Source: Schmidtea nova
Lineage: Eukaryota
Length of the DNA: 64,000 nt
Reading direction: 5' to 3'
Assembly: GCA_044892505.1 (NCBI GenBank)
Contig: CM097884.1
Location: 17,298,001-17,362,000 of the forward strand
Part shown: piece after piece, positions 1 to 33,790 of the stretch
How positions within the stretch are numbered: position 1 is the stretch's first letter
How the letters are laid out: each line of letters opens with the position of its first letter
The notes under the pieces: generated by a model
Database searches by the model: none
Seen by the model: the letters and a program-made list of their open reading frames with translations, nothing else
What the model was told of the DNA's origin: nothing
Program-made: the position numbers and the translations under genes

Positions 1-1077
1 ATTGATGGTGTTGCCATGTGCTCACCTTTAGCTTCTACACTGGCATCTATTTTTATGTCAAGTTTAGAAAATAAATTTATAAATTGTAGTGTGAATAAAC
101 CCTTAGTATATAAACGTTATGTTGATGATATTTTTCTTGTATTTAAGAATAAAGAACATGTTGAGCCTTTTTTGTATTATATGAATGATTTGCATAAAAA
201 TATTAAATTTACTTTTGAAGAAGAAATTAATTCTAAAATATCATTTCTTGATTTGTTGATTGAAAAGAAAGAGAAACATTTTAAAACTGAAATCTATAGG
301 AAAAAAACAGATACTGGTTTGTATACATCACCGGAAAGCTTTTGCGATTTTAAATATAAAATAAATATAATAAAAGGATTGGTTTATCGTTCTTGGACAT
401 TGCCGTCAACTTATTATAAATCTATAAATAGTATTGATAAATTATTTAAATTACTACAGAATAATGGATATTCAAAATGTTTCTTGCAACGAATGGTGAG
501 CAAAACTGTTCATAAGTGTATTAAAAAGTTGAATGTTATTGATGAAAAAATTTCTCCTGGTGTTGATCCGTTTAATACCCCGTATAGTGCTCATTTGATT
601 GAAACCGGTGATGTTGTTATGGGAATAAATGATGGTGTTGATTGTAATAATAATAATGAAATAAATAAAAGTAACTTGAATGATTGCATTGGTTCTGTTA
701 TAGTTTTACCGTTTTCAGAGGGATTTGTAAATTTTAAAAATCTATTATGAAGAATTTTGGAAATACTAATGTTAAAATAATTTCTAAGTCTTGCAAAGTT
801 CGGGACATGTTCAGTAATAAATCTGTGACAACATTTGGTCTGAGTTCTGATCTCGTATATGGTTTTACCTGTAATGTCACATACATTGGAGAGACTGCCC
901 GTCATCTCTGTACACGAGTTCAAGAACATGCCAGAAAGAGCGGAGAGTAACATTATTGAGCATAATAAGACTTGCAAGAAGAGCATTGATGATAACATCA
1001 TTTTATCCAAAAATAAACATACAAAATGCAATATCTACATGCATTTTGAGAGTGTTTCATTAATTTTACTAGGGTAA
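1..1077 (+). mobile_element. Penelope-like retroelement remnant (RT C-terminal half, frameshift, GIY-YIG endonuclease)
   Basis: Frame from base 1 reads IDGVAMCSPL...YKRYVDDIF...SFLDLLI...YRKKTDTG, matching PLE RT motifs (GxxMGSPL, YVDD, FLD, YRKxT). After a frameshift near 750, LVYGFTCNVTYIGETARHLCTRVQEH matches the GIY-YIG of PLEs. 5' part lies outside the window. Confidence 0.9.
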
Positions 1078-1167
1078 ATTAAAAATTTTATTGGATTATG
1101 CACATGTAATTATGTAATCACTATTAAGCGTATAAAAAAGATTAATTTTTATTTTATTGAGATTGTG

Positions 1168-1220
1168 GAAAGCCTGATGATGACAGCTGAGCTGTTGAAA
1201 TATATTGCAGTAATATATTT
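1168..1220 (+). ncRNA. Hammerhead-ribozyme-like motif at PLE 3' end (stem I degenerate)
   Basis: CTGATGA-t-GACAGC tga GCTGTT-GAAA-TATATT...AATATAT gives the hammerhead core, stem II and a possible stem III. Stem I pairing is poor. PLE terminal repeats are known to carry hammerheads. Confidence 0.5.
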
Positions 1221-4200: not shown

Positions 4201-4623
4201 ACTTTTTTAATTGTTTATTAATTTTGTTTTTATTAAAATTTTTTATTTTGAATTTTTTTATAATTATAATTAAAATTTTCATTGTCATTGTCATTCTGAC
4301 AAAAAATAAAAAATAGGGGGGGGGGGTTATCCGGTGTCCGTAAGGACGCCCACCATAATAATAATAGAAAAATAATAATACACAAATAAACATAAACAAC
4401 AATAATCATATCATTACGGTATTAAAACCTATTAACTACATTTTGCATCTATTAACTAATTTAATTTTTTCAAAGTATATTATAAATCTACCATTTTGAA
4501 AAAGTAACAAGGTAATTATTTAAAAGATAGTATTTTGATTTCAATGAGATAATTATACAAGCTTCGTAATTATAATATTAATCATCATGATTTTTTTTCA
4601 TTATATTTTTCATATATTTGATA

Positions 4624-4626
<3 letters not shown>

Positions 4627-4697
<71 letters not shown>

Positions 4698-4698
4698 T
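4627..4698. repeat. (AT)n followed by (AAT)n microsatellite
   Basis: Directly visible. Confidence 0.95.
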
Positions 4699-4988
4699 TA
4701 ACATTTAGCTTCATGTCATAATAATCTCATAGAAATTTAGTTTTCTTGATAAATTTTTTTAAAAAAGTATTATCAAATATTCCATAAATAACTCTTGAAA
4801 CACTTTTATTCTTCTTTCTTTCATTTGAAGAAAATATTACTCTCCAAAGATATCTTTTTTTTGCAGCATTTGGGAAAAAACGATGGATATGCTGATAATA
4901 ACTTTTGAGATTTTTGAATCCATCTTTTTGTAATTCATTCTATTTTTCCATTATCTTCGGAAATCTTTGATTAACTGCCACCGATTTT

Positions 4989-5099
4989 TTATTTTATTAT
5001 AAAGCCAAATTCTTTATACTGAAATATTATTGCTTTAATTGTGTTTTTTGTAATTCCTAACAGTCTGCCAAATTCTAAATAATCCTCCCCAATTTCCAT
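4989..5099 (-). pseudogene. Possible death-domain-like fragment
   Basis: Manual translation MEIGEDYLEFGRLLGITKNTIKAIIFQY resembles the death-domain pattern LGxDWxxLAxxLGxxxxxIxxI. Short, with an in-frame stop just upstream and downstream. Confidence 0.3.
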
Positions 5100-6460
5100 G
5101 GTATTCACGATTTTGACTTGTCACCTTCTGAAATTCTGTTACAATATAACATTTTTAAAATTTTAGCCAATAAAACCTACTTTTTTCTAGTATTTCTTTC
5201 TATACAAAGCCCCTACAGAACTTGATTGTTCTTCATTAAATGATATTCTATAAAAATTTTGATTTAATTATGTATTAAAAAATAATTTTTACAAATTTAG
5301 CTGGTCATTTTCCTAAAAGCTTCAGAAATATCGGAATTGCTATAAAAATTTAATTAATTATTAAATGAAAAAAGAAATCTTACAATATGCCCTTTTAAAA
5401 AATGTTTTCAATGATTTTCTTTTGATTTAATTTTAAAAATCGATAAAAAATAATTAATATGAAGAAGATACCAACTTTTTGTGTGTGTAAAATTTATTAT
5501 TGGGTAATAGTGATTGATTAAATTTGCACCTATTAAAAGTTTGCATTTAATTTTTACTTTATAATGCCTTTTTGTGGTTTTCAAAATTTTCCATCATTTT
5601 TGTCTACCACATAATAAAAGATGTTAGTTAATGTTAGCACACCGACAACACACAAGTGAGTGTTTGAAATTTCTATAGTATAATCTTATTTTATATTATA
5701 GGAGCTGCTACTCATCGTTGTATGGTGTACATTATTTTAAATGATACATACTGTATTTAGTCAATGCATGCATTAACTAGTGAGTGTATACACACACTGA
5801 TTCACATTAGTGATAGTATTAGTTGAATGATTCTAACCTCAAAATTTTAAAGACTTGTGCTAGTTGTGTCTACTGCAAATAGAAATCTTGCGAAATTTAC
5901 GAAAAAGATTATGTAAAAAACACTAATTTATTAATAAATTATAAATAAATTTAATAAAAATTAATAAATCAATTGTAAAAATATCTGTAAAACTTATGAT
6001 AAAAATACTAATTTAATAATAAATAATAAATAAATTTAATAAAAATTAATAAATAAATTGTAAAAATATCTATCAAATATTACAGTATATAATAAACAAA
6101 CCATTGAAATACTTTAACTAATCTACTTGTGTAATCTATTTGTGTATACTTTCTCTGATTAGGTAAGTTAAGGTATACTTTAGCTAGTGGGTGTATATAT
6201 TGACTAAGTTGATGCTTTAACTCTAACATATATTTTACATATTTTACATTTATTTATATTTTCCAATCAAAATATATTTAACTTTAAATTGAAAGAATAA
6301 TTGTAAAATTTTCCTATTTTAATTAGAAAAAATCTGGACTTATAAATTGGCATTAATCTCATTATTTAATTATAAATATTATTACTGTATTGGTGACTGT
6401 CTTTAAACAAAATTATTTTACCTACCAACTCCACATTTATGTGTAACTTATAAATGCATG

Positions 6461-6461
<1 letters not shown>

Positions 6462-6538
<77 letters not shown>
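6462..6538. repeat. (AT)n microsatellite
   Basis: Directly visible. Confidence 0.95.
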
Positions 6539-6544
<6 letters not shown>

Positions 6545-7003
6545 AATTTATATATCTAATTTTTCATATTTTCTTTGATTTAGTTTAATATATTAAAATA
6601 TAAAAAAATTTTTAATTAACAATAAATATTTGAGTAACAAATTCCAGTTTGAAGACCACTGGACTTGTTAATTAATGATTTATTAGTGACTAGTTAAAAA
6701 CAATATTTTAAATATTTTAAAATTTATTTTGTATTTTTATGAATTCATTATTTTTAATTACTAATATTAAACATTATTTAAATTCTTTTCTCCAAAACTA
6801 ATAGCATCCGGATTTAAAATTTTCCTACAGGGGTATTTAAATAAATACTTGTTTTTTGTTTTAACTTTGATTTTAATATTAGCTAATAAAAATAAAAACA
6901 TTTTGCATAGTTTTGAAGTAAGAATATTTAAAGTATCATTTTTAACATTCAATTACAACCGTAAGGATTTACGAAAAAAATATTATATCATTTCAAAACT
7001 TAC

Positions 7004-7150
7004 TTGCAATGCATAAAGCTGCATCTTCGTCATATTTTTCTGGACAATCAGGTTCGCCATCACATATGAAGTCAAACGACAAACACTTCCCGGGAGTTTT
7101 GCAAGGCCAAGGTGCACTTTCTGGACATCCATTTCCAGAACGGCTTTCTC
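7004..7150 (-). CDS. Internal exon encoding an LDL-receptor class A module, prohormone-4/IDLSRF-precursor-like
   Basis: 147-nt phase 1-1 exon bounded by ...ttaag acceptor (7152-7151) and gtaagt donor (7003-6998). It translates ESRSGNGCPESAPWPCKTPGKCLSFDFICDGEPDCPEKYDEDAALCIA: six Cys, CDGxxDC and DE motifs. The ending DEDxxLCxA matches my recollection of prohormone-4. Confidence 0.75.
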
Positions 7151-7858
7151 CTTAATTCATATAATTATAATATTTATGTAAACAATCAGTAAATTAACAC
7201 AATTTTGTGAAATATTTATTGCCGAAACTTCGTGTTGAAAAAGAAAAAATCAATGTTTTGATCCATTGGTTGAAATAAGATAAAAAGAATCAAATAATAT
7301 TAAATAACAAAATGAACAAAGATAAAGTAAATAAAAGATTTTATTGATATTAAAATGTTTAATATTCATAGAAATCCTAAGCAATACGTAAAATTNNNNN
7401 NNNNNNNNNNNNNNNNNNNNNNNNNNNNNNNNNNNNNNNNNNNNNNNNNNNNNNNNNNNNNNNNNNNNNNNNNNNNNNNNNNNNNNNNNNNNNNNNNNNN
7501 NNNNNNNNNNNNNNNNNNNNNNNNNNNNNNNNNNNNNNNNNNNNNNNNNNNNNNNNNNNNNNNNNNNNNNNNNNNNNNNNNNNNNNNNNNNNNNNNNNNN
7601 NNNNNNNNNNNNNNNNNNNNNNNNNNNNNNNNNNNNNNNNNNNNNNNNNNNNNNNNNNNNNNNNNNNNNNNNNNNNNNNNNNNNNNNNNNNNNNNNNNNN
7701 NNNNNNNNNNNNNNNNNNNNNNNNNNNNNNNNNNNNNNNNNNNNNNNNNNNNNNNNNNNNNNNNNNNNNNNNNNNNNNNNNNNNNNNNNNNNNNNNNNNN
7801 NNNNNNNNNNNNNNNNNNNNNNNNNNNNNNNNNNNNNNNNNNNNNNNNNNNNNNNNNN

Positions 7859-7958
7859 ACCTTTGATCTTTTTTTATTATTATTATCAATAATTCTCATA
7901 ATGACTATAGATCAAAATTTTTTTTTATAAACAATAACACAATATTTCGGCACAGCCT
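7859..7958. repeat. Arm of ~150 bp hammerhead-containing repeat (between gaps)
   Basis: ACCTTTGATC...GACTATAGATCAAAA...TTTCGGCACAGCCT matches the other copies. Confidence 0.9.
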
Positions 7959-8596
7959 NNNNNNNNNNNNNNNNNNNNNNNNNNNNNNNNNNNNNNNNNN
8001 NNNNNNNNNNNNNNNNNNNNNNNNNNNNNNNNNNNNNNNNNNNNNNNNNNNNNNNNNNNNNNNNNNNNNNNNNNNNNNNNNNNNNNNNNNNNNNNNNNNN
8101 NNNNNNNNNNNNNNNNNNNNNNNNNNNNNNNNNNNNNNNNNNNNNNNNNNNNNNNNNNNNNNNNNNNNNNNNNNNNNNNNNNNNNNNNNNNNNNNNNNNN
8201 NNNNNNNNNNNNNNNNNNNNNNNNNNNNNNNNNNNNNNNNNNNNNNNNNNNNNNNNNNNNNNNNNNNNNNNNNNNNNNNNNNNNNNNNNNNNNNNNNNNN
8301 NNNNNNNNNNNNNNNNNNNNNNNNNNNNNNNNNNNNNNNNNNNNNNNNNNNNNNNNNNNNNNNNNNNNNNNNNNNNNNNNNNNNNNNNNNNNNNNNNNNN
8401 NNNNNNNNNNNNNNNNNNNNNNNNNNNNNNNNNNNNNNNNNNNNNNNNNNNNNNNNNNNNNNNNNNNNNNNNNNNNNNNNNNNNNNNNNNNNNNNNNNNN
8501 NNNNNNNNNNNNNNNNNNNNNNNNNNNNNNNNNNNNNNNNNNNNNNNNNNNNNNNNNNNNNNNNNNNNNNNNNNNNNNNNNNNNNNNNNNNNNNNN

Positions 8597-8696
8597 ACCT
8601 TTGATCTTTTTTTATTATTATTATCAATAATTCTCATAATGACTATAGATCAAAATTTTTTTTTATAAACAATAACACAATATTTCGGCACAGCCT
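8597..8696. repeat. Arm of ~150 bp hammerhead-containing repeat (between gaps)
   Basis: Near-identical to 7859-7958. Confidence 0.9.
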
Positions 8697-9899
8697 NNNN
8701 NNNNNNNNNNNNNNNNNNNNNNNNNNNNNNNNNNNNNNNNNNNNNNNNNNNNNNNNNNNNNNNNNNNNNNNNNNNNNNNNNNNNNNNNNNNNNNNNNNNN
8801 NNNNNNNNNNNNNNNNNNNNNNNNNNNNNNNNNNNNNNNNNNNNNNNNNNNNNNNNNNNNNNNNNNNNNNNNNNNNNNNNNNNNNNNNNNNNNNNNNNNN
8901 NNNNNNNNNNNNNNNNNNNNNNNNNNNNNNNNNNNNNNNNNNNNNNNNNNNNNNNNNNNNNNNNNNNNNNNNNNNNNNNNNNNNNNNNNNNNNNNNNNNN
9001 NNNNNNNNNNNNNNNNNNNNNNNNNNNNNNNNNNNNNNNNNNNNNNNNNNNNNNNNNNNNNNNNNNNNNNNNNNNNNNNNNNNNNNNNNNNNNNNNNNNN
9101 NNNNNNNNNNNNNNNNNNNNNNNNNNNNNNNNNNNNNNNNNNNNNNNNNNNNNNNNNNNNNNNNNNNNNNNNNNNNNNNNNNNNNNNNNNNNNNNNNNNN
9201 NNNNNNNNNNNNNNNNNNNNNNNNNNNNNNNNNNNNNNNNNNNNNNNNNNNNNNNNNNNNNNNNNNNNNNNNNNNNNNNNNNNNNNNNNNNNNNNNNNNN
9301 NNNNNNNNNNNNNNNNNNNNNNNNNNNNNNNNNNNNNNNNNNNNNNNNNNNNNNNNNNNNNNNNNNNNNNNNNNNNNNNNNNNNNNNNNNNNNNNNNNNN
9401 NNNNNNNNNNNNNNNNNNNNNNNNNNNNNNNNNNNNNNNNNNNNNNNNNNNNNNNNNNNNNNNNNNNNNNNNNNNNNNNNNNNNNNNNNNNNNNNNNNNN
9501 NNNNNNNNNNNNNNNNNNNNNNNNNNNNNNNNNNNNNNNNNNNNNNNNNNNNNNNNNNNNNNNNNNNNNNNNNNNNNNNNNNNNNNNNNNNNNNNNNNNN
9601 NNNNNNTTTTTCTAGAAGAAAGAACAGTGAGAAAGAAGTAAAATGTATGGAAAAGTATTTGTATTTGATGTATTAGAAACTCTTTTGGTCAAAATCTTTC
9701 ATCAAATGAACATTTAGAAAAGACTTATGATTTTAAATGATATTATTATATTTTAAAAGACTCCACTATTACTAAACTAAATCTTATTAATTCCTTTTTA
9801 TTTCAAAAATTTTTTAAGAAGCAACGGCACAAAGCATTATAGAAAATCATCAATTATCATCACTAATAAATCTGCAAACTAATTGAACAGTTTTTTCTT

Positions 9900-10030
9900 G
9901 AACAAGATCATTTTAAGATTTTCCTTGGAAGAAACCTGGCTAGAACTCATTAAACGAAGGTGCGTCGAAATAAAAGTAAATCAAAGTCAATAAGCAGCTT
10001 CAGACGGCGGTCTCTACATACAACAGTGGA
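9900..10030 (+). pseudogene. Possible degenerate APE endonuclease fragment of a non-LTR retrotransposon
   Basis: LEETWLE (ETWL motif) followed ~80 nt later by DGGLYI (GGGVxIY-like), with frame breaks. Confidence 0.3.
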
Positions 10031-10698: not shown

Positions 10699-10854
10699 TA
10701 TCAATAATTCTCATAATGACTATAGATCAAAATTTTTTTTTATAAACACACTTGATAAAGGCTGTGCCGAAATATTGTGTTATTGTTTATAAAAAAAATT
10801 TTGATCTATAGTCATTATGAGAATTATTGATAATAATAATAAAAAAAGATCAAA
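10650..10854. repeat. (AAT)n plus inverted dimer of the hammerhead-containing repeat
   Basis: Partial left arm followed by the reverse-complement arm CTTGATAAAGGCTGTGCCGAAATATTG...AAAGATCAAA running into a gap. Confidence 0.9.
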
Positions 10855-20387: not shown

Positions 20388-20461
<74 letters not shown>

Positions 20462-20666
20462 TCATAATTATCTTTTTTCACCTTTGATCTTTTTTTATTA
20501 TTATTATCAATAATTCTCATAATGACTATAGATCAAAATTTTTTTTTTATAAACAATAACACAATATTTCGGCACAGCCTTTATCAAGTCTCAGAAATAC
20601 ACACTTGATAAAGGCTGTGCCGAAATATTGTGTTATTGTTTATAAAAAAAAATTTTGATCTATAGT
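20388..20666. repeat. (AAT)n plus inverted dimer of the hammerhead-containing repeat
   Basis: Full left arm, short spacer, reverse-complement arm into a gap; abuts the 3' LTR. Confidence 0.9.
20596..20637 (+). ncRNA. Minimal type I hammerhead-like ribozyme (U3:A8 variant), representative copy
   Basis: Stem I AATA(C)ACAC/GTGTTATT, core TTGATAA plus one extra A, stem II GGC-tgt-GCC, GAAA, palindromic ATAT stem III, putative cleavage triplet AUU (20627-20629). Confidence 0.6.
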
Positions 20667-20847: not shown

Positions 20848-23468
20848 GGTTAAAACAAAATAGTAAATTAAACTAATAATTATTTTTAAACGCTCTAGGG
20901 ATTCCTCCATCCAAAACCTCACATAAAATGCTTACATATCACACGAGCACCCTCGATCATTTCCCTATAATAATCGAGTTGGAAATGTGCAAGGTGTTTG
21001 AACAATGATGGGCAGGTGAGCTCTATTGCTAAAACTACTCCCCATTTATGTTCACGGGTTCGTCTCGCTGCCGATAGAAGGACTTACGCTTAAATTTTAA
21101 TCTATCCGCATCCATTTATCTGTCATCTCAATTATCTCTTTTCGCCCCCTTTCGTTACAATATATTTCAACTTTCAACTTTCTTTCAGCCCCCTTCTTTA
21201 CAATATCAACAAATAATATTTTTACGATATGTTATTTCTTTAATGCTATTATTGTTCATTACTTTGTGTCAATCTTTTATTTATAATCTACCTTTAATTT
21301 AATTTAGAAATCCCTTAATAAAATACTTTAGTTCATATACTTTACAATAAAATAAATACAAAACAAAAATTATTTAATAAGCAAAATTTACAAATCACAA
21401 AATTTCTAATCAAAATATTTAGAAATGTCTTCATCTGATATTGTAAAATTCATGTTCAAATCAATTTCTGGAATGTTGTTTGATCGTTGTGCCAATTGCT
21501 GGAGAACTTGTTTCTTCCAGCGACGCTGACGCGCGCCCATCTTACTCTTCTTTTTCTTTTTGACTTCTGGAATTATTACGTCCTTTGGTGTGATTGAGGC
21601 CGCCGTTGCTTGAACCTGAGATGGTTCCTCTGTGCTTGTTCCTTTTGAGCATCCTGCCTTTTCGTCAGCCCAATGCTGGTAAGTGATTGGTCGAATGAGC
21701 TGGCTGAGCTCTTGAGTTAGATATGATGCCGTTACAGATTTTAGGCATTTCTTTAATTCCATCTTCGTTGCGTCCAATTCCATTTGCAGTTCGCTGTTAG
21801 CTCGCTGTGAGCGTTGAGTTTTGGTGATTTGCATTTTCATTTGGTCTGGACTGAACCAGCTTTTCTTTAGGTTGGAAATTATTCCATCGGCTTCTTTTAT
21901 TTTCTCTGACTTTCGCAGCATTTCCTTTTCCAGGCTGCGAATTATTCTCCAGGCTTTGTCTAATTCGGCTTGATTGGTTGCTGTGTTTGCTGACATTTTC
22001 TAAAATTCAAAATGGTTTATTGACATGAAGTTAGTAGTCTTGATTCGAACGATTCTCATACCTTTGACAATTGGTAATTGTTAATTTAGGAAAAGAAAAT
22101 GATGTACCTATTACGCTTTCAACACTGTCGCTATGTACAGCGATCAGATACATTTATGTCATAATATGTTTTATTTCCACCTGTGCTATATACAGCAATC
22201 AGGTTACAAAATTATTTAAATAAACTAAGATCCGCTGCCCTATGTACAGGGTTCAGGATAAGCAATTATATTTAATTATTTAGGTGGACTGTTTGATCCT
22301 ATAGCCTATTGCTGCTATGTTACTTGCGTAGTAGATCACTACGCTATTAAATTATCGATTTTTATGTTATTGTTAAAATTACATTTTGTACAAATTCTTA
22401 ACCCTGCATCTGCCGCTCTATGCCCACAAACCCCAGATGTGACAATCGAAAAATATAGATTCACTCTCTGTGAATTCGAAAGAAAATCAGGTTAATCAAA
22501 TCGTAGTTACGTCTGTATCCAACTAGAATCAAACTCTATTCAACTATAAACTCATGAAAAACTAAATCGGTTAGAAAATAAAACTTCAACTGGTTATACT
22601 ATCCAGTGAAAAATAGGGTTAAAAATCAGGGTTAAATAAAAATTCCTACCCTCGTCACGGCGCTTTACACCGGTCGGACGGCCTAACTGTACGGAGCAGT
22701 CGTTTCTACTCGGCACAGTATGCCTCCATGTTCCCTATTGCACGGTGAACGGAGCCCCTTAAATCATACGTAATTTTATACTATAAATACGGTATATAGA
22801 TAATATATATTCGCCTCCTTCCACTGATTTCACAGTGGAAGAAGCTTGGTTTAATTCTATACTCGAAAAAAAATTTAAAAATCATATATCATAAAATATT
22901 TTATTAATAATTAACTACAATGGTCAATGACAGATAATCATAAAATTTATAAATTCAATAAACAAAAATACTCATACCTTTCAAGTTCTGTTCAAATATC
23001 TTTCAGTATCAAATAATCACAAGATCATAAAATCATAAAAGCATAAGCATATATTTTAACTGAATCTGGATCAGTATATATACTGATCAGATCAGATCAC
23101 TGACCAATCAGCTTGAAGCTGATGGTCATCAATGCAATTCTATTAAAATCAAAAATCGATTTTATTAATAAATATGATTTGCATTTTCTGGTTTTAATTT
23201 ATCGAATTTTTATTAATTCTTCTTCTTTTTTACTTATTTATTTCGCTTTCTTATTATTTAAATATAATTAAATATCATTTTCTTTAACGTTTTTACATTA
23301 TACATTTATTTTCTTCCAATTTTTTTATATTAAATTAATATTCTTTATTACATTTTAATTCGTTTTTACTGATATTTTCATAATTATATTTATTTTAATT
23401 TATTCTTATTTTCTCTCTTATTATTATTATTTTTTATGCTAAATGTGGACCAAATGGTGGATCCAACA
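20848..23468 (-). repeat. 3' LTR (left end hidden in N gap)
   Basis: Matches 35262-37882; ends ...GGATCCAACA on +. In spot comparison I saw only two substitutions (22629/37043 and 22736/37150). Confidence 0.92.
21406..21996 (-). CDS. LTR-encoded 196-aa coiled-coil protein with basic cluster (3' LTR copy)
   Basis: Intact ORF identical to 35820-36410; contains KKKKKSKMGARQRRWKK; preceded by ttttAG-aaa-ATG. Confidence 0.65.
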   Translation of the reverse strand: MSANTATNQAELDKAWRIIRSLEKEMLRKSEKIKEADGIISNLKKSWFSPDQMKMQITKTQRSQRANSELQMELDATKMELKKCLKSVTASYLTQELSQLIRPITYQHWADEKAGCSKGTSTEEPSQVQATAASITPKDVIIPEVKKKKKSKMGARQRRWKKQVLQQLAQRSNNIPEIDLNMNFTISDEDISKYFD

Positions 23469-24298: not shown

Positions 24299-25402
24299 TT
24301 AAACTAACGACTCATTGGGTTCGTGAAAACCTTCATCTTGAGGTTCCACTTGGTTTGTAGGGGGTGGTAACCACACTATCGTGTTTCTCCACATTGTTAC
24401 TTCATCTCGATAGAAGTGTGACAATTGAATTTCTTCGTCTAACAGGTATTCTAAATAATTTGATTGTTCTGTTAACGCTTCGATCTGTTTTTCTAATTCT
24501 GTTATTTTATTGTTTTTCTCTTCCTCTTCCATCATTTTTATTACTGCTTTGGTGATATCTGTCTCTTTTGGTGGTGTTAATTTTTGTATCAATTTTTGTT
24601 TCAACTCTTCATTTTCTTTGGTTAGATTTAATAAATTTTCCTCATAGCTTTGTTTTGCTTCTTTTAATTTTAATAAATTTTCTTCATAGCTTTGTTTTGC
24701 TTCTTCTAATCTTTCTTTAGTTTTCTTTAATTCTATCTTCTTTTGAGTGATTACTCCTTGATAACCATTAATATCGCGCTTCATATCTTCCTCTTTCTGC
24801 ATCCCTGCTCTGAGGTTTGCATCGGATTGTTGTTTACTGAAATATAATTCTCTTTCCGATCTTTCAATCTGGTGCATAAGTTGTTTAATTTTTCCTGCTT
24901 GCTCTCTGATGAATTGTTGTCTCTTTATATTCCATTTCTTGCTCGATATTTCCTGATAGGTTTTCTGTTCTAATTCCTCTTTTAATTTATCGATTTCTTC
25001 AAATAACTTCCAATCATCGCTGTACGCCGTTCTTTCGATTATTTCTCTTGCTTTCGTATAAGATTCTTTCGCTTCTTTTTTCCAATATCTTGCTTGCTCG
25101 GTAATGGAGTACATTTTCCGTTCCATTTCTGTTCGTTCTCGCTCTCTTTCTTCTCGTCGTTCTTTCATCATCTTTTTATAATATTCTTTTTGTTTCTCTA
25201 ATAATTCATATAATTCGTCTATTTTATCTTGACTTAATCGCTTTAATCTTTTGGCTTCTGTTATTTGTTCGGCTTGTCTTTCTACTTCTTTTTGTTTGTG
25301 GTAATATGCGTGGATCCAACTTTTAATTTGTTCTAAATGCTCACAAATAACTTCATCTTGATGTTCGGTTACTTCTTGTAAACTGATTTCGACGTTTCCC
25401 AT
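24299..25402 (-). CDS. 367-aa long coiled-coil protein
   Basis: Intact E/K/Q-rich heptad-like ORF with an internal 14-aa duplication (EAKQSYEENLL x2); no recognisable catalytic motif. Confidence 0.75.
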   Translation of the reverse strand: MGNVEISLQEVTEHQDEVICEHLEQIKSWIHAYYHKQKEVERQAEQITEAKRLKRLSQDKIDELYELLEKQKEYYKKMMKERREERERERTEMERKMYSITEQARYWKKEAKESYTKAREIIERTAYSDDWKLFEEIDKLKEELEQKTYQEISSKKWNIKRQQFIREQAGKIKQLMHQIERSERELYFSKQQSDANLRAGMQKEEDMKRDINGYQGVITQKKIELKKTKERLEEAKQSYEENLLKLKEAKQSYEENLLNLTKENEELKQKLIQKLTPPKETDITKAVIKMMEEEEKNNKITELEKQIEALTEQSNYLEYLLDEEIQLSHFYRDEVTMWRNTIVWLPPPTNQVEPQDEGFHEPNESLV

Positions 25403-25506
25403 TTTCTATAATTACAAATATTTTCAATCAGGCTACTTTTATTATTTTGTTTATTTATCATTTTATATTGTTTTGTACAGTTTATTTACACGATCATTTT
25501 CTCTTG

Positions 25507-26862
25507 CTACGCCAACCATCCTTTTCTATCTGCCTTCTCGTTCCTTTCCATTTCTATGTATAAGGTGTCCTCATACAATAATCCCCATATCTTGCTTTGT
25601 AATACAAAGTGTGGTTCTCCACTTGCTAATCCACATTCTTCTGTTGGTCTGTTACTCGTAACTGCTCCTTTGTCTGTCGTGAATCTCTTTTCTATGGTTT
25701 CGTTTAAACCCCTGATTTTTATCATTACTCCTACTCCTATCGGCCAATCGATTAACTCGTCATATTCTCCTTTGCAAAACGCAAAAAATATTGATATATG
25801 TTTTCCCATACTTTTCCCATCTCCGTTTGGATATACTTTCAATCTCACTTTAGCCCCGTTTTTCCATAAGTAAAATGGTGGGCTTATTACCGCAGTTTTC
25901 TTGAAGCTTCGTGCATCTTCCAATTTATTTCGAAAATCCGTTATTTTCCACACATAAGGTGCTATTGGTAAATCTTTTTTCTCATCAATTTCTTGTATTA
26001 ACTTGTTATATTGCACTTTCATTCCTTTTGCTAATTTTTTAATGGTTATTATTTTTTCTTCCATCTTTTCTCGGGTTAATTCAAACTGTTCTCTCGTTTC
26101 TAATAATAGGTTCATCATTATCTTATGAGATTCCACTTCTTTTTCCAATTTCTGAATTGTTCTGTCTGTCATTTCAATATGATTGATTGCTTCTGTTTCT
26201 AAATGTTGTTTCATATTTTGTTGAGACTTCTTTTCCTTGCATCCATATCTGTTGTAAGGACATTCTCTTGGTATTTCTGTACACTTTTTCCAATGTTCTC
26301 GTAATTTCACTTCTTCGGTAATTTCACATTTGTTTGGGCACACTCCTACATACTGTTCGCATATTCTCTCTTCTTTTATATTGATGTGCTCTTCTTCAAT
26401 TTTTCTCCTTGTTTCTCGAATTTCGCAATATTCACATGCGATTTCTTCCTCTTTGCATTCATCTCTGTGTTTATCTTTGTCTTTTAAAATTATCGTTTCT
26501 TTACACTTTTCACATTCGCTTCTCTTTTCTTCACAATTTTCTATATGATTTTCAATTTCACTGATTTGTCCTTGCCATATGCACGGTGGATTTATACATT
26601 CAATTAATATGTTCATGATTTCTCTCTGAGTTGCTCTATCTGGTCTCGTTTCGTCTAACACTATTTGTCCTTCTTTACATTCTGGACATTCTGTTATTCC
26701 TTTTAACTCTAACATTTGTACACATCTAGTGCATAATCTACATCCACAGGCGGTTTGCTTTGGTTTCCGTAATAAATTATTACAATATCCACATACAAAT
26801 CTCTTGTTCCAATTTCTGTTTGCTGCTCTCAAAATCTCGACTGCTCGTTCTTCTTTATCCAT
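25507..26862 (-). CDS. TRAF: TRAF-family protein (RING, TRAF zinc fingers, coiled coil, MATH/TRAF-C)
   Basis: RING CGYCNNLLRKPKQTACGCRLCTRC...CPEC; PDRATQREI...CxWQG; MATH YVWKITDF...SPPFY...KVRLKVYPNGDGKSMGKHISIFF...KGEYDELIDWP parallels TRAF2/3/5. Start MDKEER (26862) is favoured over 26886 because of the adjacent acceptor-like AG. Intronless. Confidence 0.92.
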   Translation of the reverse strand: MDKEERAVEILRAANRNWNKRFVCGYCNNLLRKPKQTACGCRLCTRCVQMLELKGITECPECKEGQIVLDETRPDRATQREIMNILIECINPPCIWQGQISEIENHIENCEEKRSECEKCKETIILKDKDKHRDECKEEEIACEYCEIRETRRKIEEEHINIKEERICEQYVGVCPNKCEITEEVKLREHWKKCTEIPRECPYNRYGCKEKKSQQNMKQHLETEAINHIEMTDRTIQKLEKEVESHKIMMNLLLETREQFELTREKMEEKIITIKKLAKGMKVQYNKLIQEIDEKKDLPIAPYVWKITDFRNKLEDARSFKKTAVISPPFYLWKNGAKVRLKVYPNGDGKSMGKHISIFFAFCKGEYDELIDWPIGVGVMIKIRGLNETIEKRFTTDKGAVTSNRPTEECGLASGEPHFVLQSKIWGLLYEDTLYIEMERNEKADRKGWLA

Positions 26863-26957
26863 TTCTACAATAATATATACATACATTGATTTGTTCTTTG
26901 TTTTTGATTTTTCTAGAGTTTATTTTTACATATATACAATTTTCCGCTACAATTTGA

Positions 26958-27415: not shown

Positions 27416-28561
27416 CTATACTATCATCACTGCCTTTTCATCGTGTCGCTCCTCGTCTTCGATCTGCTTCCAAAATTCTTTGCCTTTGGTTCTTCTTTGG
27501 AATTCTTTCTTTACTTCTTCTGGTATCTTGATTTTACAATTCATAATCTTTATATCTGGCCATTGTCTGGTTGGTTTCTTTTTTATTATGTCCCATAGCC
27601 ATATTATTGATAGTATTATTATTACTGGTACGCATACTGCTAGTATTCCTACTCCAATTAGTTCTCTTCTTTGCTTGTTAATATTAATTTGGGTGAATTT
27701 GCTTTGGTTGATCATTGGTCCATATTGTCCTTTCAATTTGAGTTCCAATTGTTGTCGTTCTTGTTGTTTCCTTTTGACTTCCTGGATTACTTTTTCTGGT
27801 TTCCATTGTGCATAAGAATCTATTATTGTTTCCTCGTTTTCCATTTGTTTCGTTGTTTGATTGAGTTCTCCAAAAGTTAGTTTCCTGATTCTTCCTTTGA
27901 TCGTTGTATTTGTCGGTGTATAGTAATTTCCACATTTTTCTTGCTGGTTTCCAAATTTATCTGCCTTCTCTATTGCGCATATTTCGTATTGTTTGTCCAA
28001 TTGTAGGTTCTGAATTCTGATCTCCTCTTCTTTATTCATCTTTTCGCATTGTTGTGGTTGTCTTTCCTCGTATTTCTTGATCATTGTCCAACATATTTCC
28101 ACTGTTTTGTCATCTAATTTCCAAAGTATAAGTGTTGCTGAGGTTTTCCTCTCTGGTTCTGTTTGACTTTTGGTAGTGGTATGCTTCGGTTTTTGTTGAC
28201 TTTTATTCTTTCGTATTGCTTTATTGGTTTTTACTCTGTTCGGTGCTTTGTATATTCTGCATTCTAAATCTTCTTTCGTTATTTGATCATTTTCTTTTAC
28301 TAGGCATATTTCATACGTTTGATTTCTTTCTAAGCTTTTTATTTGTACTTCAGTTGTTCCTCTGATTGTTTGACATTGTGATGATTTAGGTTTGTTCGCT
28401 TCTTTCTCGTATTTTCTCCAGCATACTCCGTTTACGTTTTGTTCTATTCCCGTTATTTCTAACGTTATGGTTAATTTCTGGTTCATATTTGTCTTCCATT
28501 TCTGGTCTAAATTCTTCTTCATATATACCTCCTTTTGCTTTCCAGCATTTCTCTTTAACAT
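27416..28561 (-). CDS. 381-aa protein with two FN3-like repeats and a C-terminal TM helix
   Basis: Two internal repeats: VCWR...IKSLERNQTYEICLV...C...Y and ICWT...IQNLQLDKQYEICAI...C...Y (FN3 LxPxTxYxxCV-like pattern). TM LIGVGILAVCVPVIIILSIIWLW followed by KKK. No signal peptide; overlaps the Gag 3' end. Confidence 0.7.
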   Translation of the reverse strand: MLKRNAGKQKEVYMKKNLDQKWKTNMNQKLTITLEITGIEQNVNGVCWRKYEKEANKPKSSQCQTIRGTTEVQIKSLERNQTYEICLVKENDQITKEDLECRIYKAPNRVKTNKAIRKNKSQQKPKHTTTKSQTEPERKTSATLILWKLDDKTVEICWTMIKKYEERQPQQCEKMNKEEEIRIQNLQLDKQYEICAIEKADKFGNQQEKCGNYYTPTNTTIKGRIRKLTFGELNQTTKQMENEETIIDSYAQWKPEKVIQEVKRKQQERQQLELKLKGQYGPMINQSKFTQININKQRRELIGVGILAVCVPVIIILSIIWLWDIIKKKPTRQWPDIKIMNCKIKIPEEVKKEFQRRTKGKEFWKQIEDEERHDEKAVMIV

Positions 28562-31500
28562 CCCAGTGTTTCTCTACTGGTGTTAATCGGCGTTCGTTGA
28601 AGTTTAATTCTCCTAATATATTTTCCCATTCTGGCTGTATCTGCCATCTTCGATAAATTTCTATTATTTGTCTTAGTTTGTGCATCGCTTCTCTTTGACG
28701 TTCTTGTCTCCTTTTTTCGTCTTTTGGTGTTTCTCTTGGTGTATCATCCATTCTGATAACATGAATTGTTTGGTAATTATCCCATATACCAATTTTATAT
28801 AATCGTCTCTCATCATGATCCCCTAGTACGTGTTCATTATATTTCATGATGATATCGTCTACCAATTCGTCTTCTTTTTCCCGTTGTAATAAAGTCTCAT
28901 TGATAACATCAACTAATTCTTCTATTGTGCAATCCGCGATTACTTCAATTTCTTTTGTGTCTTCGTTTGGTAATTTCACTTTGATTTTTAAATCTCCTAT
29001 TTCTCCTCGTTTAAACATCGCTTTTCCCATTTTCGCGATCACTCTCCAAGTCTTGTATGACGAATGTCTCGTATGGCTGGTATCTCGTATATTTTCGATG
29101 CATTGTTTTAATTTCTCATATTCAGTTTTTGTTAATTCTTCTCTATTCTTGTCGATTTGTTGAATAATTTGTTCTATTAGTGAATTTAAATTTTCTCTGA
29201 GAATTCTTTCTTTCCTTTCTACTAACTGAGGTTTAATTCTCATCTCAAAACACATATTTGCTTCCTTTGCGATTTCTTGTAAATTTTCCTCTTTCTTATT
29301 GTCGCATATTGATAATGTTGTTATCTCTCCTGGCCATATGCCTGTTTCTACCAAATGCGTTGCTCGTCTTACAAGTTCATTTCCTGAATATATGAATTTG
29401 TTTTTATATGAACTTCCCAATCTGTCTTCTACCCATCGATAAATTTCGTTCGTGCATGGAGATTTGATCCAAATTCTTGGTGAACATTCGTTTATTTCTA
29501 TTAAAATTATATATTCATGGAGTGGTTCATCTAATAGTTTGACGACGTATCCTGATAATATCTCTACTTCACGACTTTGTAACCGTTCTTTATAGTTCAT
29601 TCGGAATACTGCTCTTATAAATTTTCGATATCGCTTCTTCTCAATAAATTCCTCGTTATAAATCACTTCTAACGCATTATCTAATAGTTTCTGAATTTCA
29701 TCTTCTTTAATTTGTATATTTTCTGGCGTCTTCGCTACTTCTATCTTGTTGTCTTCATTTTCTGGTTCTTTTAGCATATCTCCTGCTAAACTACTGACAT
29801 CACTGTCACTTTCTACATCTGAAAATTCTCTAGTTAAGTTTCTTAACATGTTTATATGTGTTGTCTGTTCTACTTTATCTGGTACATTTTTTGGTGGTAT
29901 CTCTTCTTTTTTGTCATTGTTTTCTGGTTCTTCTATTTGGCCTCTTCGTTTTTCTATTTCCATTGCTTTTCTCTGTTTGATTCTCTCTTCAAATATCTTC
30001 AATGCTCTACTTTTGACTTTTGTTACTGGTTTTGATTTCTCTTCATCGTTATTTTCTTCTATTTCTTGGATAACTGTGACTTTCATTTTATTCATTGGTA
30101 CTCCTAAATCTTTCCATATGTCAGTTGGTTTTAATTTTATTGCTGCTTCGTCTTCTGTCTGTAAGAATGCTTCTCGGGGTAGTTTCGTCGTTCCCGGAAT
30201 CGTCTTGTTTACTTTATTAATTAATACTCCTACTTCCTCTTTTTCATCATATTCAAATCGAAATACATGATCGTTTGGCATGACTACCAACATCCTTTCT
30301 TGTTCAATAACTTCTTCGTTTTCTTGTACTTTTTCTTTTTGGTTTTCTTCGTCTACTAAATTAGGTTTTATCTGATTTGTTTCTGGTTCAATATCTTCCT
30401 TGTTATCTCTTGTTTGATTCGCTGCTCTCATCATATTAATTCTCAATGGTTGTCGTTCTCTTTCTTGTCGTTTCTGTTCGTCTTCTCTTTGTATTCTTGC
30501 CCATTCTTGAGCATGTCGTGCTTGACTTTCTCGATTTAGTCGTTCATTTTCACTTTCTACTTTTCTCATCATATTCATTTGTTGTTGATTCGTTTGTTGA
30601 TTTCCTCTCGGTGTATTGTTTATTAACTCTGTCAATCTCTGAACTTCTTGTAGTAAATGTATTTCTTTGGTGGTACTTTTATTCTCGTTGTAACTACTCT
30701 GTTGATTTCCAAAATTCTGACGGTTTCCGTTATTCTGTCGATTATCATAATTTTGTCGATTTCCGTTGTTCGACCAATTCCTTTGCTGGTTGTTTTGTTG
30801 TTGGCAGTTTCTTGCCATATGACCTGGTTGTCCACAGTTATAACATGAATTCAGGTAACATCTACTTTCCGAATGTCCTTTTCTTCCACACTTTTTACAA
30901 TTTAAATTCGCGAAACATTCTTGTTGCCAATGTCCTAACTTTCCACAGGTTTGACATTGCTTTGTCTGTCCTTGCGTATTATAATTATTTTGGTTTCCGA
31001 AATTTTGTACTTTGTTTCCCTCATTTCTCCTTTGAGGTGGTGGTCGATTTAATTGCTGTGAGTTCGGAATATGGTTATTTATCTTTATTGCTTGTTCGTT
31101 TTGTGTCGTATCCATTGCTAGGTAAATTCTTCCTTCACTTCCGATCATATGTAATTCGAATCTGTTAGCAATTTCCAACGCTTCATCTATTGTTTTACAA
31201 CCTTGGCATCCAACTTGTGCTCTTATATCGGGTCTTCTCAATCCCCCCACAAAAATTGCTGCCATTAATTCTGGACTCATTGGACTATTTTGATTAAATG
31301 CTAATTTAGCCAATTTCTTTAATTCACTTGCATATACCGCATTTGATTCATTAACTTTTTGTTTCCTCATTGAAAATTCTGTAAACGCTTCATTTAATAC
31401 TTTATTTATTCCAAACGTTTGCTGGAAAAAATTCTTTATCTTTTCCCAACTATCGAGTTGATCATCTGAATTTTTAGCTTCTAAATATAAATCTAACGCA

Positions 31501-32033
31501 CTGTCTTTTAAATATAACTGAATTCTGCTCCTTATCGTTTCTGGTTTCCATTTACACACTTCTACAAATATACCAAATTCTTTTAAAAACGTTTCTAACT
31601 TGCTGGCATCTCCATTGAATGGTTCTCCAGTAAATTTATCTTTGATTTCTTCTTTATGTTCGTTCATTTCGATTCCGCTGTCTTGTGTCGTTTTACTCTC
31701 GTTTCCTCTTGTTTCACTAGTATGCTCGTTATTCGTTTCGTTTGAATTATTATCAATTTCTGCTTCTACTTCTTCTGTGTTTATTGACTCGTTATCTGAT
31801 GCTTCCGTATTATTATAATTATCGTAGGTTTCACTTGAACTTTCTTCTGTTTCACTTTCGTTAGTTTTTGTTAATTTATTGTTTTCGATTTTTGACTTTT
31901 CTACTATTACTCTTCTTGATTTACTTCCTTTAGGATTTGTTTTCTTTGTAACACTGGTTGCTCTTTGTTTCGATTTATTTCTCTGTGAATTATCAACTTT
32001 TTTGATTGTAGCACTAACTGCTCTTGATCTCAA
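28386..32033 (-). CDS. gag: Extended Gag polyprotein: capsid, 3 CCHC zinc knuckles, N/Q-rich and E/K-rich linkers, two ubiquitin-like domains
   Basis: Capsid: FNGDASKLETFL...YLKDSALDLY...SWEKIKNFF...RKQKVNESNAVYASEL (Ty3/Gypsy-type). CX2CX4HX4C x3 at 30804-30956. Ubl-like segments at 29307-29513 and 28752-28991. The frame is open from 32126 but has no early ATG, so the start is uncertain. Confidence 0.85.
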   Translation of the reverse strand: MRSRAVSATIKKVDNSQRNKSKQRATSVTKKTNPKGSKSRRVIVEKSKIENNKLTKTNESETEESSSETYDNYNNTEASDNESINTEEVEAEIDNNSNETNNEHTSETRGNESKTTQDSGIEMNEHKEEIKDKFTGEPFNGDASKLETFLKEFGIFVEVCKWKPETIRSRIQLYLKDSALDLYLEAKNSDDQLDSWEKIKNFFQQTFGINKVLNEAFTEFSMRKQKVNESNAVYASELKKLAKLAFNQNSPMSPELMAAIFVGGLRRPDIRAQVGCQGCKTIDEALEIANRFELHMIGSEGRIYLAMDTTQNEQAIKINNHIPNSQQLNRPPPQRRNEGNKVQNFGNQNNYNTQGQTKQCQTCGKLGHWQQECFANLNCKKCGRKGHSESRCYLNSCYNCGQPGHMARNCQQQNNQQRNWSNNGNRQNYDNRQNNGNRQNFGNQQSSYNENKSTTKEIHLLQEVQRLTELINNTPRGNQQTNQQQMNMMRKVESENERLNRESQARHAQEWARIQREDEQKRQERERQPLRINMMRAANQTRDNKEDIEPETNQIKPNLVDEENQKEKVQENEEVIEQERMLVVMPNDHVFRFEYDEKEEVGVLINKVNKTIPGTTKLPREAFLQTEDEAAIKLKPTDIWKDLGVPMNKMKVTVIQEIEENNDEEKSKPVTKVKSRALKIFEERIKQRKAMEIEKRRGQIEEPENNDKKEEIPPKNVPDKVEQTTHINMLRNLTREFSDVESDSDVSSLAGDMLKEPENEDNKIEVAKTPENIQIKEDEIQKLLDNALEVIYNEEFIEKKRYRKFIRAVFRMNYKERLQSREVEILSGYVVKLLDEPLHEYIILIEINECSPRIWIKSPCTNEIYRWVEDRLGSSYKNKFIYSGNELVRRATHLVETGIWPGEITTLSICDNKKEENLQEIAKEANMCFEMRIKPQLVERKERILRENLNSLIEQIIQQIDKNREELTKTEYEKLKQCIENIRDTSHTRHSSYKTWRVIAKMGKAMFKRGEIGDLKIKVKLPNEDTKEIEVIADCTIEELVDVINETLLQREKEDELVDDIIMKYNEHVLGDHDERRLYKIGIWDNYQTIHVIRMDDTPRETPKDEKRRQERQREAMHKLRQIIEIYRRWQIQPEWENILGELNFNERRLTPVEKHWDVKEKCWKAKGGIYEEEFRPEMEDKYEPEINHNVRNNGNRTKRKRSMLEKIRERSEQT

Positions 32034-32870
32034 TTTATTTCTTTGTGAATTATTAACTTCTTGATTTTTAACTGTTCTTGATCTCGATTTACTTCTCTTT
32101 AATTTATCAATTTTTCTGTTTCTCTGTTATCGTATTCTGATTGATTGGTTGGTTGTTTGACTTGTTCTGTTCCGTGTATCTAAATTAAAAAGTCACTTCA
32201 ACGATACATCATTGTTATCGTTGCGCTTTTATTCCTCATTATTGGGTTTCCATTGTTTCCCCATTCCCGGTTTCCCCTTTATTTAAGTCTATTTAAATTA
32301 TCTATTCACTGGTAACAATTATCTATATGGTCGTAATAATTATCTATCGTTATCAAATAAATTCATTACTTTTCCCTCAGTCTCCCAATTTAATTTGTCG
32401 CTCAAACGCTTTAATTCCCTTGAGCTCTCCTGACTCAATTATCATTTTATTACTATTCATTATATCATCATTACTCACTATTCTCACTAATCAACTCTAA
32501 TTTCTCATCATTACTCACTATTCTCACTATTTCTACCGGTTTTTTTCCGGTCAACTCTAATTTCTCTTATTCCTATTTCTACTCGTATGCATACTGAATC
32601 TCTAGTTTACTTAATCATCTTTACTCGTATTACTCAATTTCTAGTGCTCATTACTCTTAACATCGTCGACGATTACAACTTGGTTTTATTTCATCTCTGT
32701 TGCTTATTTATTCCCTTGGCTCTCTACGCCATAATTTAATTTATTCACTTGACTCTTCTCTAATTTATTCACTTATTCACTTGGCTCTTCTATGCCCTAA
32801 TTTAATTTATTCGCTTGACTCCATGGCCCTTCTCTAGGGAAAATACCTTCTTAGAGAATAATCACCTGCT

Positions 32871-33790
32871 TAGTTAGGCCTTTGACCCTTCTTTCGGGGT
32901 AATCTTAAATAATCTGACTTGTTTGCTCTTGACCTTTTTTTTACAAGGTATTTAACTAATATGGCTTGTTTGCCCTTGACTCTTCTTTCAGAGTATTTGA
33001 CTAATATGGCTCGTTGGCCCTTGACCTTTTTGTACAAGGTATTTAACTCATCTGGCTTGTTTGCCCTTGACTCTTCTTTCCGAGTATTCAACTAATATGG
33101 CTCGTTGGCCCTTGACCTTTTTGTACAAGGTATTTACTCATCTGGCTTGTTTGCCCTTGACTCTTTTTCCAGAGTATTCAACTAATATGGCTCGTTGGCC
33201 CTTGACCTTTTTGTACAAGGTATTTAACTCATCTGGCTTGTTTGCCCTTGACTCTTCTTTCAGAGTATTCAACTAATATGGCTCGTTGGCCCTTGACCCT
33301 TCTTTCAGAGTAATTAACTAATACGGCTCGTTGGCCCTTGACCCTTCTTTCAGAGTAATTAACTAATACGGCTCGTTGGCCCTTGACCCTTCTTTCAGAG
33401 TAATTAACTAATACGGCTCGTTGGCCCTTGACCCTTCTTTCAGAGTAATTAACTAATACGGCTCGTTGGCCCTTGACCCTTCTTTCAGAGTAACTAATAT
33501 GGCTTATTTGCCCTTGACCCTTCTTTCAGAGTAACTAATATGGCTTATTTGCCCTTGACCCTTCTTTCAGAGTAACTAATATGGCTTATTTGCCCTTGAC
33601 CCTTCTTTCAGAGTAACTAATATGGCTTATTTGCCCTTGACCCTTCTTTCAGAGTAACTAATATGGCTTATTTGCCCTTGACCCTTCTTTCAGAGTAACT
33701 AATATGGCTTGTTTGCCCTTGACCCTTCTTTCAGAGTAACTAATATGGCTTATTTGCCCTTGACCTTTTTATACAAGGTATTTAACTAAT
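32871..33790. repeat. Hierarchical tandem array in element leader (90-91, 45 and 41 bp units)
   Basis: All units share the core GCCCTTGAC. 90-91 bp dimers at ~33017-33198, 45-bp units x4 at 33281-33461, 41-bp units x7 at 33469-33756. Confidence 0.95.

Follow-up and report, generated by a model that had tools for sequence, protein, structure and literature searches.

Probable ubiquitin-like domains lie midway in the polyprotein of a Burro-type Gypsy element of Schmidtea nova

Why would a retrotransposon carry ubiquitin-like (Ubl) segments in the reading frame of its capsid protein, and are such segments ubiquitin folds at all? The question arises from 64 kb of DNA of Schmidtea nova (GenBank assembly GCA_044892505.1, contig CM097884.1), hereafter called the window, to whose positions all coordinates refer. 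A first-pass annotation of the window had described two ubiquitin-like domains fused to the C-terminal part of Gag. The peptides that it quoted are present on the minus strand within one frame of 1,246 amino acids (aa) at 28386-32126, its main unit (here unit C) at 28743-28991 and its weaker unit (unit B) at 29301-29516. The frame belongs to a young copy, 17 kb long and with an internal deletion, of a Burro-type giant Gypsy long terminal repeat (LTR) element on the minus strand. In undeleted copies, units B and C lie midway in a Gag-Env-Pol polyprotein of 4,100-5,600 aa, and both probably adopt the beta-grasp fold according to models of a relative.

Burro elements rank with the largest LTR elements known. 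A description of Burro and GYPSM1, giant Gypsy elements of planarians, reports many apoptosis- and ubiquitination-related domains in Burro elements and, between MATH and BCL-2, one 'Ubi2/SUMO-like (PF11976)' motif (PMC6431247). BURRO1 is described as a highly abundant, active, and PIWI-repressed element (PMC8532177).

The window frame ends soon past unit C because of a copy-specific deletion. Relative to locus L032, the window copy jumps from L032:1721 to L032:9359 at 28473-28481, and the missing 7,646 bp contain a further candidate unit (D), a BCL2-like region, Env, the protease, and the ankyrins. The junction sequence has a single match in its own genome, and the deletion is unique to this copy. 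At 28472-28481, contigs from four other public runs of one study have loose ends that belong to the undeleted form. A search of the same genome with window positions 28560-29600 (117 matches scored among 1,139 candidates) returned four other 100%-identical matches, located in open frames of 2,194-4,118 aa. In a second group of matches, with ~75% identity, most frames measure 5,140 aa and the longest 5,161 aa. Twenty of the 30 loci fetched, the window itself included, are open over all 4 kb, and the polyproteins of sister copies extend to 4,118-5,649 aa. Past the units, the undeleted copies encode Env (Monjiviricetes_fusion, E 9e-68), the protease, and ankyrins, together with reverse transcriptase (RT), RNase H, and integrase in one subfamily. 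The open reading frame (ORF) with FN3-like repeats and a transmembrane segment, found downstream of the junction in the window, encodes the genuine C-terminal end of this polyprotein. A position of the units at the Gag C-terminus is therefore ruled out: the ORF end there was created by the deletion, the sister frames continue, and the module in the window copy is a truncated remnant.

The fold of B and C is less easily read from their sequences. The parallel to ubiquitin from which they were first recognized is not above chance, with 684 of 2000 shuffles for unit C and 1866 of 2000 for unit B scoring as well against host ubiquitin (reference locus L057). When columns were shuffled, the observed HHalign score was reached by 3 of 40 shuffles for C and by 26 of 40 for B. 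In addition, the AlphaFold model of the window's B-linker-C segment (10 sequences) has a predicted local distance difference test (pLDDT) score of 38.5, too poor to judge; Foldseek returned no match at E<=0.001 for this model, and VIA matched its helical linker only. All these results weigh against a beta-grasp assignment, as does the mediocre whole-protein pLDDT (0.54) of the ESM Atlas model considered below, whose feature scores (0.87-0.90) are leads only.

On the positive side, the Pfam matches of unit C are all sub-threshold and all to beta-grasp families (OTU1_UBXL, E 0.0055; Ubiquitin_4, E 0.12); across 10 members these families are OTU1_UBXL in four, FERM_f0 in three, and Ubiquitin_4 in two. 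Profile searches with C reach designed ubiquitin variants at E 0.3-0.4, and Foldseek on the B-linker-C model shows, beside unrelated rows, local likenesses of 35-41 columns to FERM/RA domains and to variants of ubiquitin. Unit B has no Pfam match, and phmmer searches of the PDB with both units found nothing relevant. Searches of the 90% protein library gave no homologue, and the 50%-cluster library contained one relative, P0005, which shares 32% identity over 470 aa with the window protein (39% in B and 37% in C). The C unit of P0005 has ten structural rows in the ESM Atlas with template modelling (TM) scores of 0.64-0.73, of which five are named (Rad60-SLD, ubiquitin twice, UBX, and Ubiquitin_4) and five are unnamed. 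Its B unit likewise has ten rows (TM 0.66-0.73), five of which qualify as ubiquitin-family, including RAD23-type, OASL, and HECT E3 proteins. The structure-prediction check proposed by the first-pass annotation was thus uninformative on the flagged segments themselves and gave ubiquitin-type neighbours for their homologues.

Further support comes from unit A, which is located upstream of B in the same frame and was overlooked by the first annotation. Its AlphaFold model (pLDDT 68) possesses beta-grasp secondary structure, and Foldseek found 41 matches at E<=0.001 (probability 1.00, TMq 0.56-0.69), with each listed row being or containing a ubiquitin-fold chain. VIA aligned the model with a Z of 10.5 and a root-mean-square deviation of 2.0 over 77 residues. 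The modelling strongly supports unit A as a beta-grasp, ubiquitin-like domain. That B and/or C are not beta-grasp and resemble ubiquitin by chance is in line with the null sequence tests and the uninformative model of the window's own B and C, but is quite unlikely given the ubiquitin-type Atlas neighbours of both homologous units (TM 0.64-0.73 over 69-86 residues), the convergence of the sub-threshold Pfam matches of C on beta-grasp families, and the predicted fold of the neighbouring unit A.

Two ideas on origin found no support. Ubiquitin ancestry could not be traced by sequence for A-D, as all tests were null and only unit E1 of a 3,401-aa family (see below) exceeded its shuffles; none of the four could be matched to a host Ubl by sequence. 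Descent of A-D from one ancestor by internal duplication is unsupported, with HHalign probabilities of at most 1.4% among the four.

Unit D is a ubiquitin-like candidate at L003:2926-3174, within the part deleted from the window copy. It was assigned by eye and by its position relative to the published Burro motif, which corresponds to D only; Pfam and PDB profile searches with D gave no match. The array is likely composed of four ubiquitin-like units; the first annotation was probably right about integral beta-grasp domains and likely too low in counting two. PMC6431247 was the one paper on such units that our literature searches listed, and A, B, and C were not found in print, although figures or supplements of earlier Burro work may already mark B or C. 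The element family itself was already known; new here are three more ubiquitin-like units, predicted protease boundaries, and a subfamily devoid of RT.

The units are retained in variable number in related elements. The 5,649-aa subfamily also has unit C. A family of ~4,990 aa (L051), found via P0005, has the order Gag-B-C-MATH-D-(BCL2-like)-Env and no unit A; in both P0005 and L051, MATH stands in frame ~120 aa past C. A distant Env-bearing Gypsy family (L087:4252-9900 and L089:4358-9901; 3,401 and 3,393 aa) contains two ubiquitin-like candidates between Gag and a Bcl-2-like region. Among all units examined these are nearest to ubiquitin in sequence: E1 matches polyubiquitin at E 0.0014 and beats 40 of 40 column shuffles, and HHalign pairs the two candidates with a probability of 95%. 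All three family groups examined therefore have ubiquitin-fold units between Gag and BCL2/Env. The BCL2-like region itself matches Bcl-2 in the L087 family at E 0.0036, below the cut-off; the same place in L032 aligns weakly with it (E 0.005, 19% identity) and has no Pfam match to BCL2. No BIR domain turned up in the frames scanned with Pfam. One hydrophobic segment is present between the BCL2-like region and Env at residue ~1128 of L032 (frame 3-9998). It could double as BCL2 tail anchor and Env signal peptide, and the Gag-side precursor would then be held at a membrane.

The overall architecture agrees with the description of Burro (PMC6431247) in having one giant ORF, Gag, CCHC knuckles, Env between Gag and Pol, ankyrins, and MATH/TRAF in frame or as accessory gene, and the 5,140-aa ORF of one subfamily has the length given there for a Burro-like element. 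Long LTRs are also shared, and undeleted copies total ~25.2 and ~28.3 kb, below the >30 kb quoted for the largest. The place between MATH and BCL-2 given for the published motif is held by D in L051. B and C are located upstream of MATH, and unit A is found still further upstream in the window's families, so that the Burro text (PMC6431247) does not cover these three. The TRAF gene is positioned downstream of ORF1 here and upstream in that paper. Moreover, the window's subfamily differs from Burro in being without RT, RNase H, and integrase, and the window copy also in being without D, the BCL2-like region, Env, protease, and ankyrins.

Purifying selection acts on the units. Comparing the window's subfamily with three others, the ratio of nonsynonymous to synonymous divergence (dN/dS) is 0.19-0.25 for A, 0.10-0.26 for B, 0.02-0.12 for C, and 0.09-0.18 for D. 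Unit C shares 74-87% identity between subfamilies and is the most conserved segment in two of the three comparisons (87% and 83%). Two points limit the weight of these values for the units in particular: synonymous divergence (dS) is near saturation in the comparisons, and most non-Ubl segments are similarly constrained (dN/dS 0.07-0.25, with one spacer at 0.48). Because most other segments are about equally constrained, selection does not single out the units.

Recurrent short motifs suggest how the units may leave the polyprotein. The strict motif IN[ML][ML]R occurs one to three times in six of the ten frames, with <0.02 expected. A looser form, [RHQTK][IM][NSGAC][MVAI][LMIV], has four matches in the Pol half L037 vs 0.9 expected, and these matches, at residues 62, 186, 771, and 1222, mark all four domain borders: the first two flank the protease (76-166), the third separates RNase H (to 738) from integrase (from 847), and the fourth separates integrase from the ankyrins (from 1307). 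In L031, L032, L046, and L051, the loose motif is found after the nucleocapsid (two to three times), between A and B, where it stands ahead of the helix preceding B, and after C (L032 and L046) or after C-MATH (L051). Judged from this placement, the motifs are likely the sites of the element's own protease, freeing the units from Gag. The simplest reading of the sites would give the products capsid-nucleocapsid, A, helix-B-helix-C(-MATH), and D with the BCL2-like region. Some observations count against protease release: the loose motif was defined once some sites were already known, stray matches fall within A in L046 and within B in L039, the site after C is off pattern in L036 and L039, and L033 has none. 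No Ty3 protease-site consensus for comparison was found in the accessible part of PMC6952103.

What might such a product do? No unit ends in di-Gly, as already noted for B and C in the first annotation, and Gly-Gly pairs are present in the window ORF only at residues 294 and 1199; conjugation is therefore excluded. In this respect, the units resemble the integral (type II) UBL proteins RAD23, ubiquilin, HERP, OASL, and UBX, which have embedded beta-grasp domains without di-Gly and supply the nearest structural rows. Tandem Ubls of the integral type also occur in USP7. Different from these proteins, the units reside in a retroelement polyprotein and show no orthology to them, the structural matches of unit A having 5-18% identity. 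We propose that B and C would act as integral, non-conjugatable ubiquitin-like domains midway in the polyprotein, from which the element's own protease may cut out a helix-Ubl-helix-Ubl(-MATH) protein. The released protein might serve as a protein-binding adaptor beside the TRAF, RING, and BCL2-like cargo, and could damp host ubiquitin-dependent death or immune signalling. This adaptor role, together with MATH/TRAF and RING cargo, has a little less than an even chance in our estimate, and its partners and its place in signalling are speculative. It is favoured because MATH lies within the same predicted product in the sister family and because such domains dominate the cargo. The separate location of the MATH gene in the window's own family, where adjacency is not required, speaks against it. 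The first-pass annotation had the capsid protein wired into the same ubiquitin pathway as the RING and TRAF cargo. Both genes are indeed carried by the element, as detected by Pfam, but putative protease sites between nucleocapsid and units weaken the link to the capsid.

An improbable alternative is that the units form a built-in late domain. Before cleavage, one or more of them would mimic ubiquitin on every Gag precursor and recruit the endosomal sorting complexes required for transport (ESCRT), so that an enveloped particle buds. The element encodes an Env-type fusion protein, the RT-less subfamily retains Gag, units, Env, and protease, and PTAP, PPxY, and YPxnL motifs are absent from the window ORF, L032, L036, and L037. 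Retroviral late domains, too, are removed by cleavage once budding is over. According to PMC2958808, ubiquitin fused to Gag works when >50% of Gag carries the fusion and requires L8 and I44; the single ORF here would provide 1:1 stoichiometry. The engineered fusions in that source resemble the element in placing a ubiquitin-fold unit in the reading frame of Gag, and differ in carrying true ubiquitin at the Gag end, whereas the units here are internal and highly diverged. With registers aligned by eye, unit B keeps Ile/Leu at the I44 position in 10 of 10 sequences (its L8 register is not fixed), but unit C appears to lack the patch, position L8 being Pro in 10 of 10 and position I44 being Lys/Gln in 6 of 10, with Val/Met there in relatives that have MATH in frame. 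The budding idea of the first-pass annotation keeps some footing in unit B, and a precursor could act ahead of its cleavage. Moreover, none of units A-D is detectably ubiquitin-like by sequence, and sister families contain candidate late motifs, though far from Gag (PPxY and YPxxL in L051, PTAP and YPxnL in L087). We regard a budding role as less likely than the adaptor role.

A scaffold within the element is an equally unlikely explanation. The units would have the nucleocapsid, RNA, or protease of the element itself as partners, or would be fast-folding spacers keeping a 5,000-aa precursor soluble and correctly processed. Coronavirus nsp3 offers an analogue in Ubl1 and Ubl2, diverged beta-grasp domains in a viral polyprotein cut by its own protease; the virus group is unrelated and the likeness is one of description only. 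The variable number of units agrees with a scaffold, A being absent from L051 and P0005 and the 3,401-aa family having two different units between Gag and BCL2. So do the poor conservation of the host-binding patch residues of C across families and the retention of the units in the RT-less subfamily. However, the conservation of C, at the top in two of three comparisons, goes beyond the needs of a spacer, and MATH is inserted within the same predicted product in the sister family.

Extended to Burro-type elements in general, the adaptor role would make them enveloped retroelements with a variable array of up to four diverged Ubls and a protease-freed Ubl-Ubl-MATH adaptor. Together with the TRAF, RING, and BCL2-like cargo, these could form a complete, element-encoded kit with which ubiquitin-dependent death and immune signalling of the host is rewired, selected even in the RT-less satellite subfamily. 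We consider this extended picture doubtful. The map replaces one published 'Ubi2/SUMO-like' annotation with up to four units and predicted protease boundaries. It also supplies small expressible domains and exact peptides, with which manipulation of host ubiquitin and apoptosis pathways by a retrotransposon, or budding by a built-in ubiquitin mimic, can be tested. Native tests are feasible in the species of BURRO1 because this element is abundant and active there (PMC8532177).

In the window's own subfamily (4,118 aa; L031-L033), a single open frame still encodes Gag, the Ubl units, Env, protease, and ankyrins. RT, RNase H, and integrase are absent from the 4,118-aa copy examined, the protease being joined straight to the end of the integrase region. 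The genome yields 16 matches to this junction, of which 12 are exact and four carry one mismatch. The LTRs of the RT-less copy checked are identical, and a 4-bp target-site duplication is present. The subfamily looks like a currently mobilised non-autonomous satellite. The 5,140-aa subfamily (L036/L037) has the order zf-CCHC, Env, protease, RT, RNase H, integrase, ankyrin. Undeleted copies measure ~25.2 kb (LTR 2,788 bp) and ~28.3 kb (LTR 3,243 bp); the families are young, because the LTRs of the two long copies checked are 100% and 99.9% identical.

The features of the window element are collected in Table 1. In a self-comparison of the window, its LTRs appear as direct repeats (20848-23468 and 35262-37882) with two differences over 2,621 bp (99.9% identity).

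Table 1 Features of the Burro-type element in the window
Feature	Position	Strand	Remarks
5' LTR	35246..37882	-	2.6 kb; TGT start, CA end; 197-aa ORF at 35820-36413
Putative primer-binding site	35219..35236	-	9 nt inside 5' LTR end
Accessory ORF, 165 aa, C-terminal C3HC4 RING	34384..34881	-	Pfam zf-C3HC4_3 E 1e-11
Tandem-repeat block, 5' leader	32860..33790	-	
Polyprotein, N-terminal 1,246 codons (Burro-type)	28386..32126	-	Stops 32 codons past deletion junction, shifted frame
Capsid core	31236..31517	-	Retrotrans_gag E 1.4e-5
Nucleocapsid CCHC knuckles	30804..30956	-	Three by eye; Pfam zf-CCHC 2 stretches, E 5e-11
Putative protease site, Gag (capsid-nucleocapsid) / unit A	30423..30443	-	Inferred
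Unit A, ubiquitin-like domain	30057..30293	-	AlphaFold pLDDT 68, beta-grasp
Putative protease site ahead of helix-B-helix-C module	29838..29858	-	Kept in 5/5 subfamily frames examined and P0005
Unit B (weaker unit of first annotation), likely ubiquitin-like	29301..29516	-	Ile/Leu at I44-equivalent
Helical linker B-C, ~100 aa	28992..29300	-	Low-confidence model
Unit C (main unit of first annotation), likely ubiquitin-like	28743..28991	-	Pro at L8, Lys at I44
Deletion junction	28473..28481		9-bp microhomology
Orphaned polyprotein C-terminal end, FN3-like repeats and transmembrane segment	27416..28481	-	In frame with Gag in undeleted copies
Coiled-coil accessory ORF, 112 aa	26958..27296	-	
Accessory TRAF gene	25507..26919	-	RING-like N-terminus by eye; zf-TRAF E 2e-8; MATH E 2e-21
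Accessory ORF, 368 aa, charged helical	24299..25405	-	No Pfam match
Accessory ORF, 189 aa	23659..24228	-	Likely signal and transmembrane segments by eye
3' LTR	20848..23468	-	Outer end under N; 197-aa ORF at 21406-21999

The charged 197-aa ORF is intact in both LTRs (21406-21999 and 35820-36413) and has no convincing Pfam match; the LTR of the 5,140-aa subfamily harbors an ORF of 198 aa. We take the putative primer-binding site to be tRNA-Pro-like; ARAGORN found no tRNA within the window. The polyprotein frame is open for 153 codons ahead of its first ATG (32126-31667) in both the window and L031, a feature of the sequence which suggests a non-AUG start or a spliced leader. The insertion site is an (ATA)n tract within a short dispersed repeat, which contains an internal inverted repeat and recurs in pieces several times in the window, at 20410-20666, 37883-38140, 48078-48239, 7859-7958, 8597-8696, and 10739-10854.

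A separate high-copy element of BEL/Pao type carries a near-canonical ubiquitin that ends in LRLRGG and stands in frame directly ahead of Gag (DUF1759). It is preceded by a remnant ending in Gly-Gly and by an Hsp70 fragment (Pfam). The element accounts for most of 150 scored matches (of 2,602 candidates), and the junction was read in three copies (L091:2839-7956, L092:3229-9900, and L077:577-3216). Our literature search found no paper on a BEL/Pao ubiquitin-Gag fusion. The arrangement is a natural ubiquitin-Gag fusion, which host deubiquitinases could cleave.

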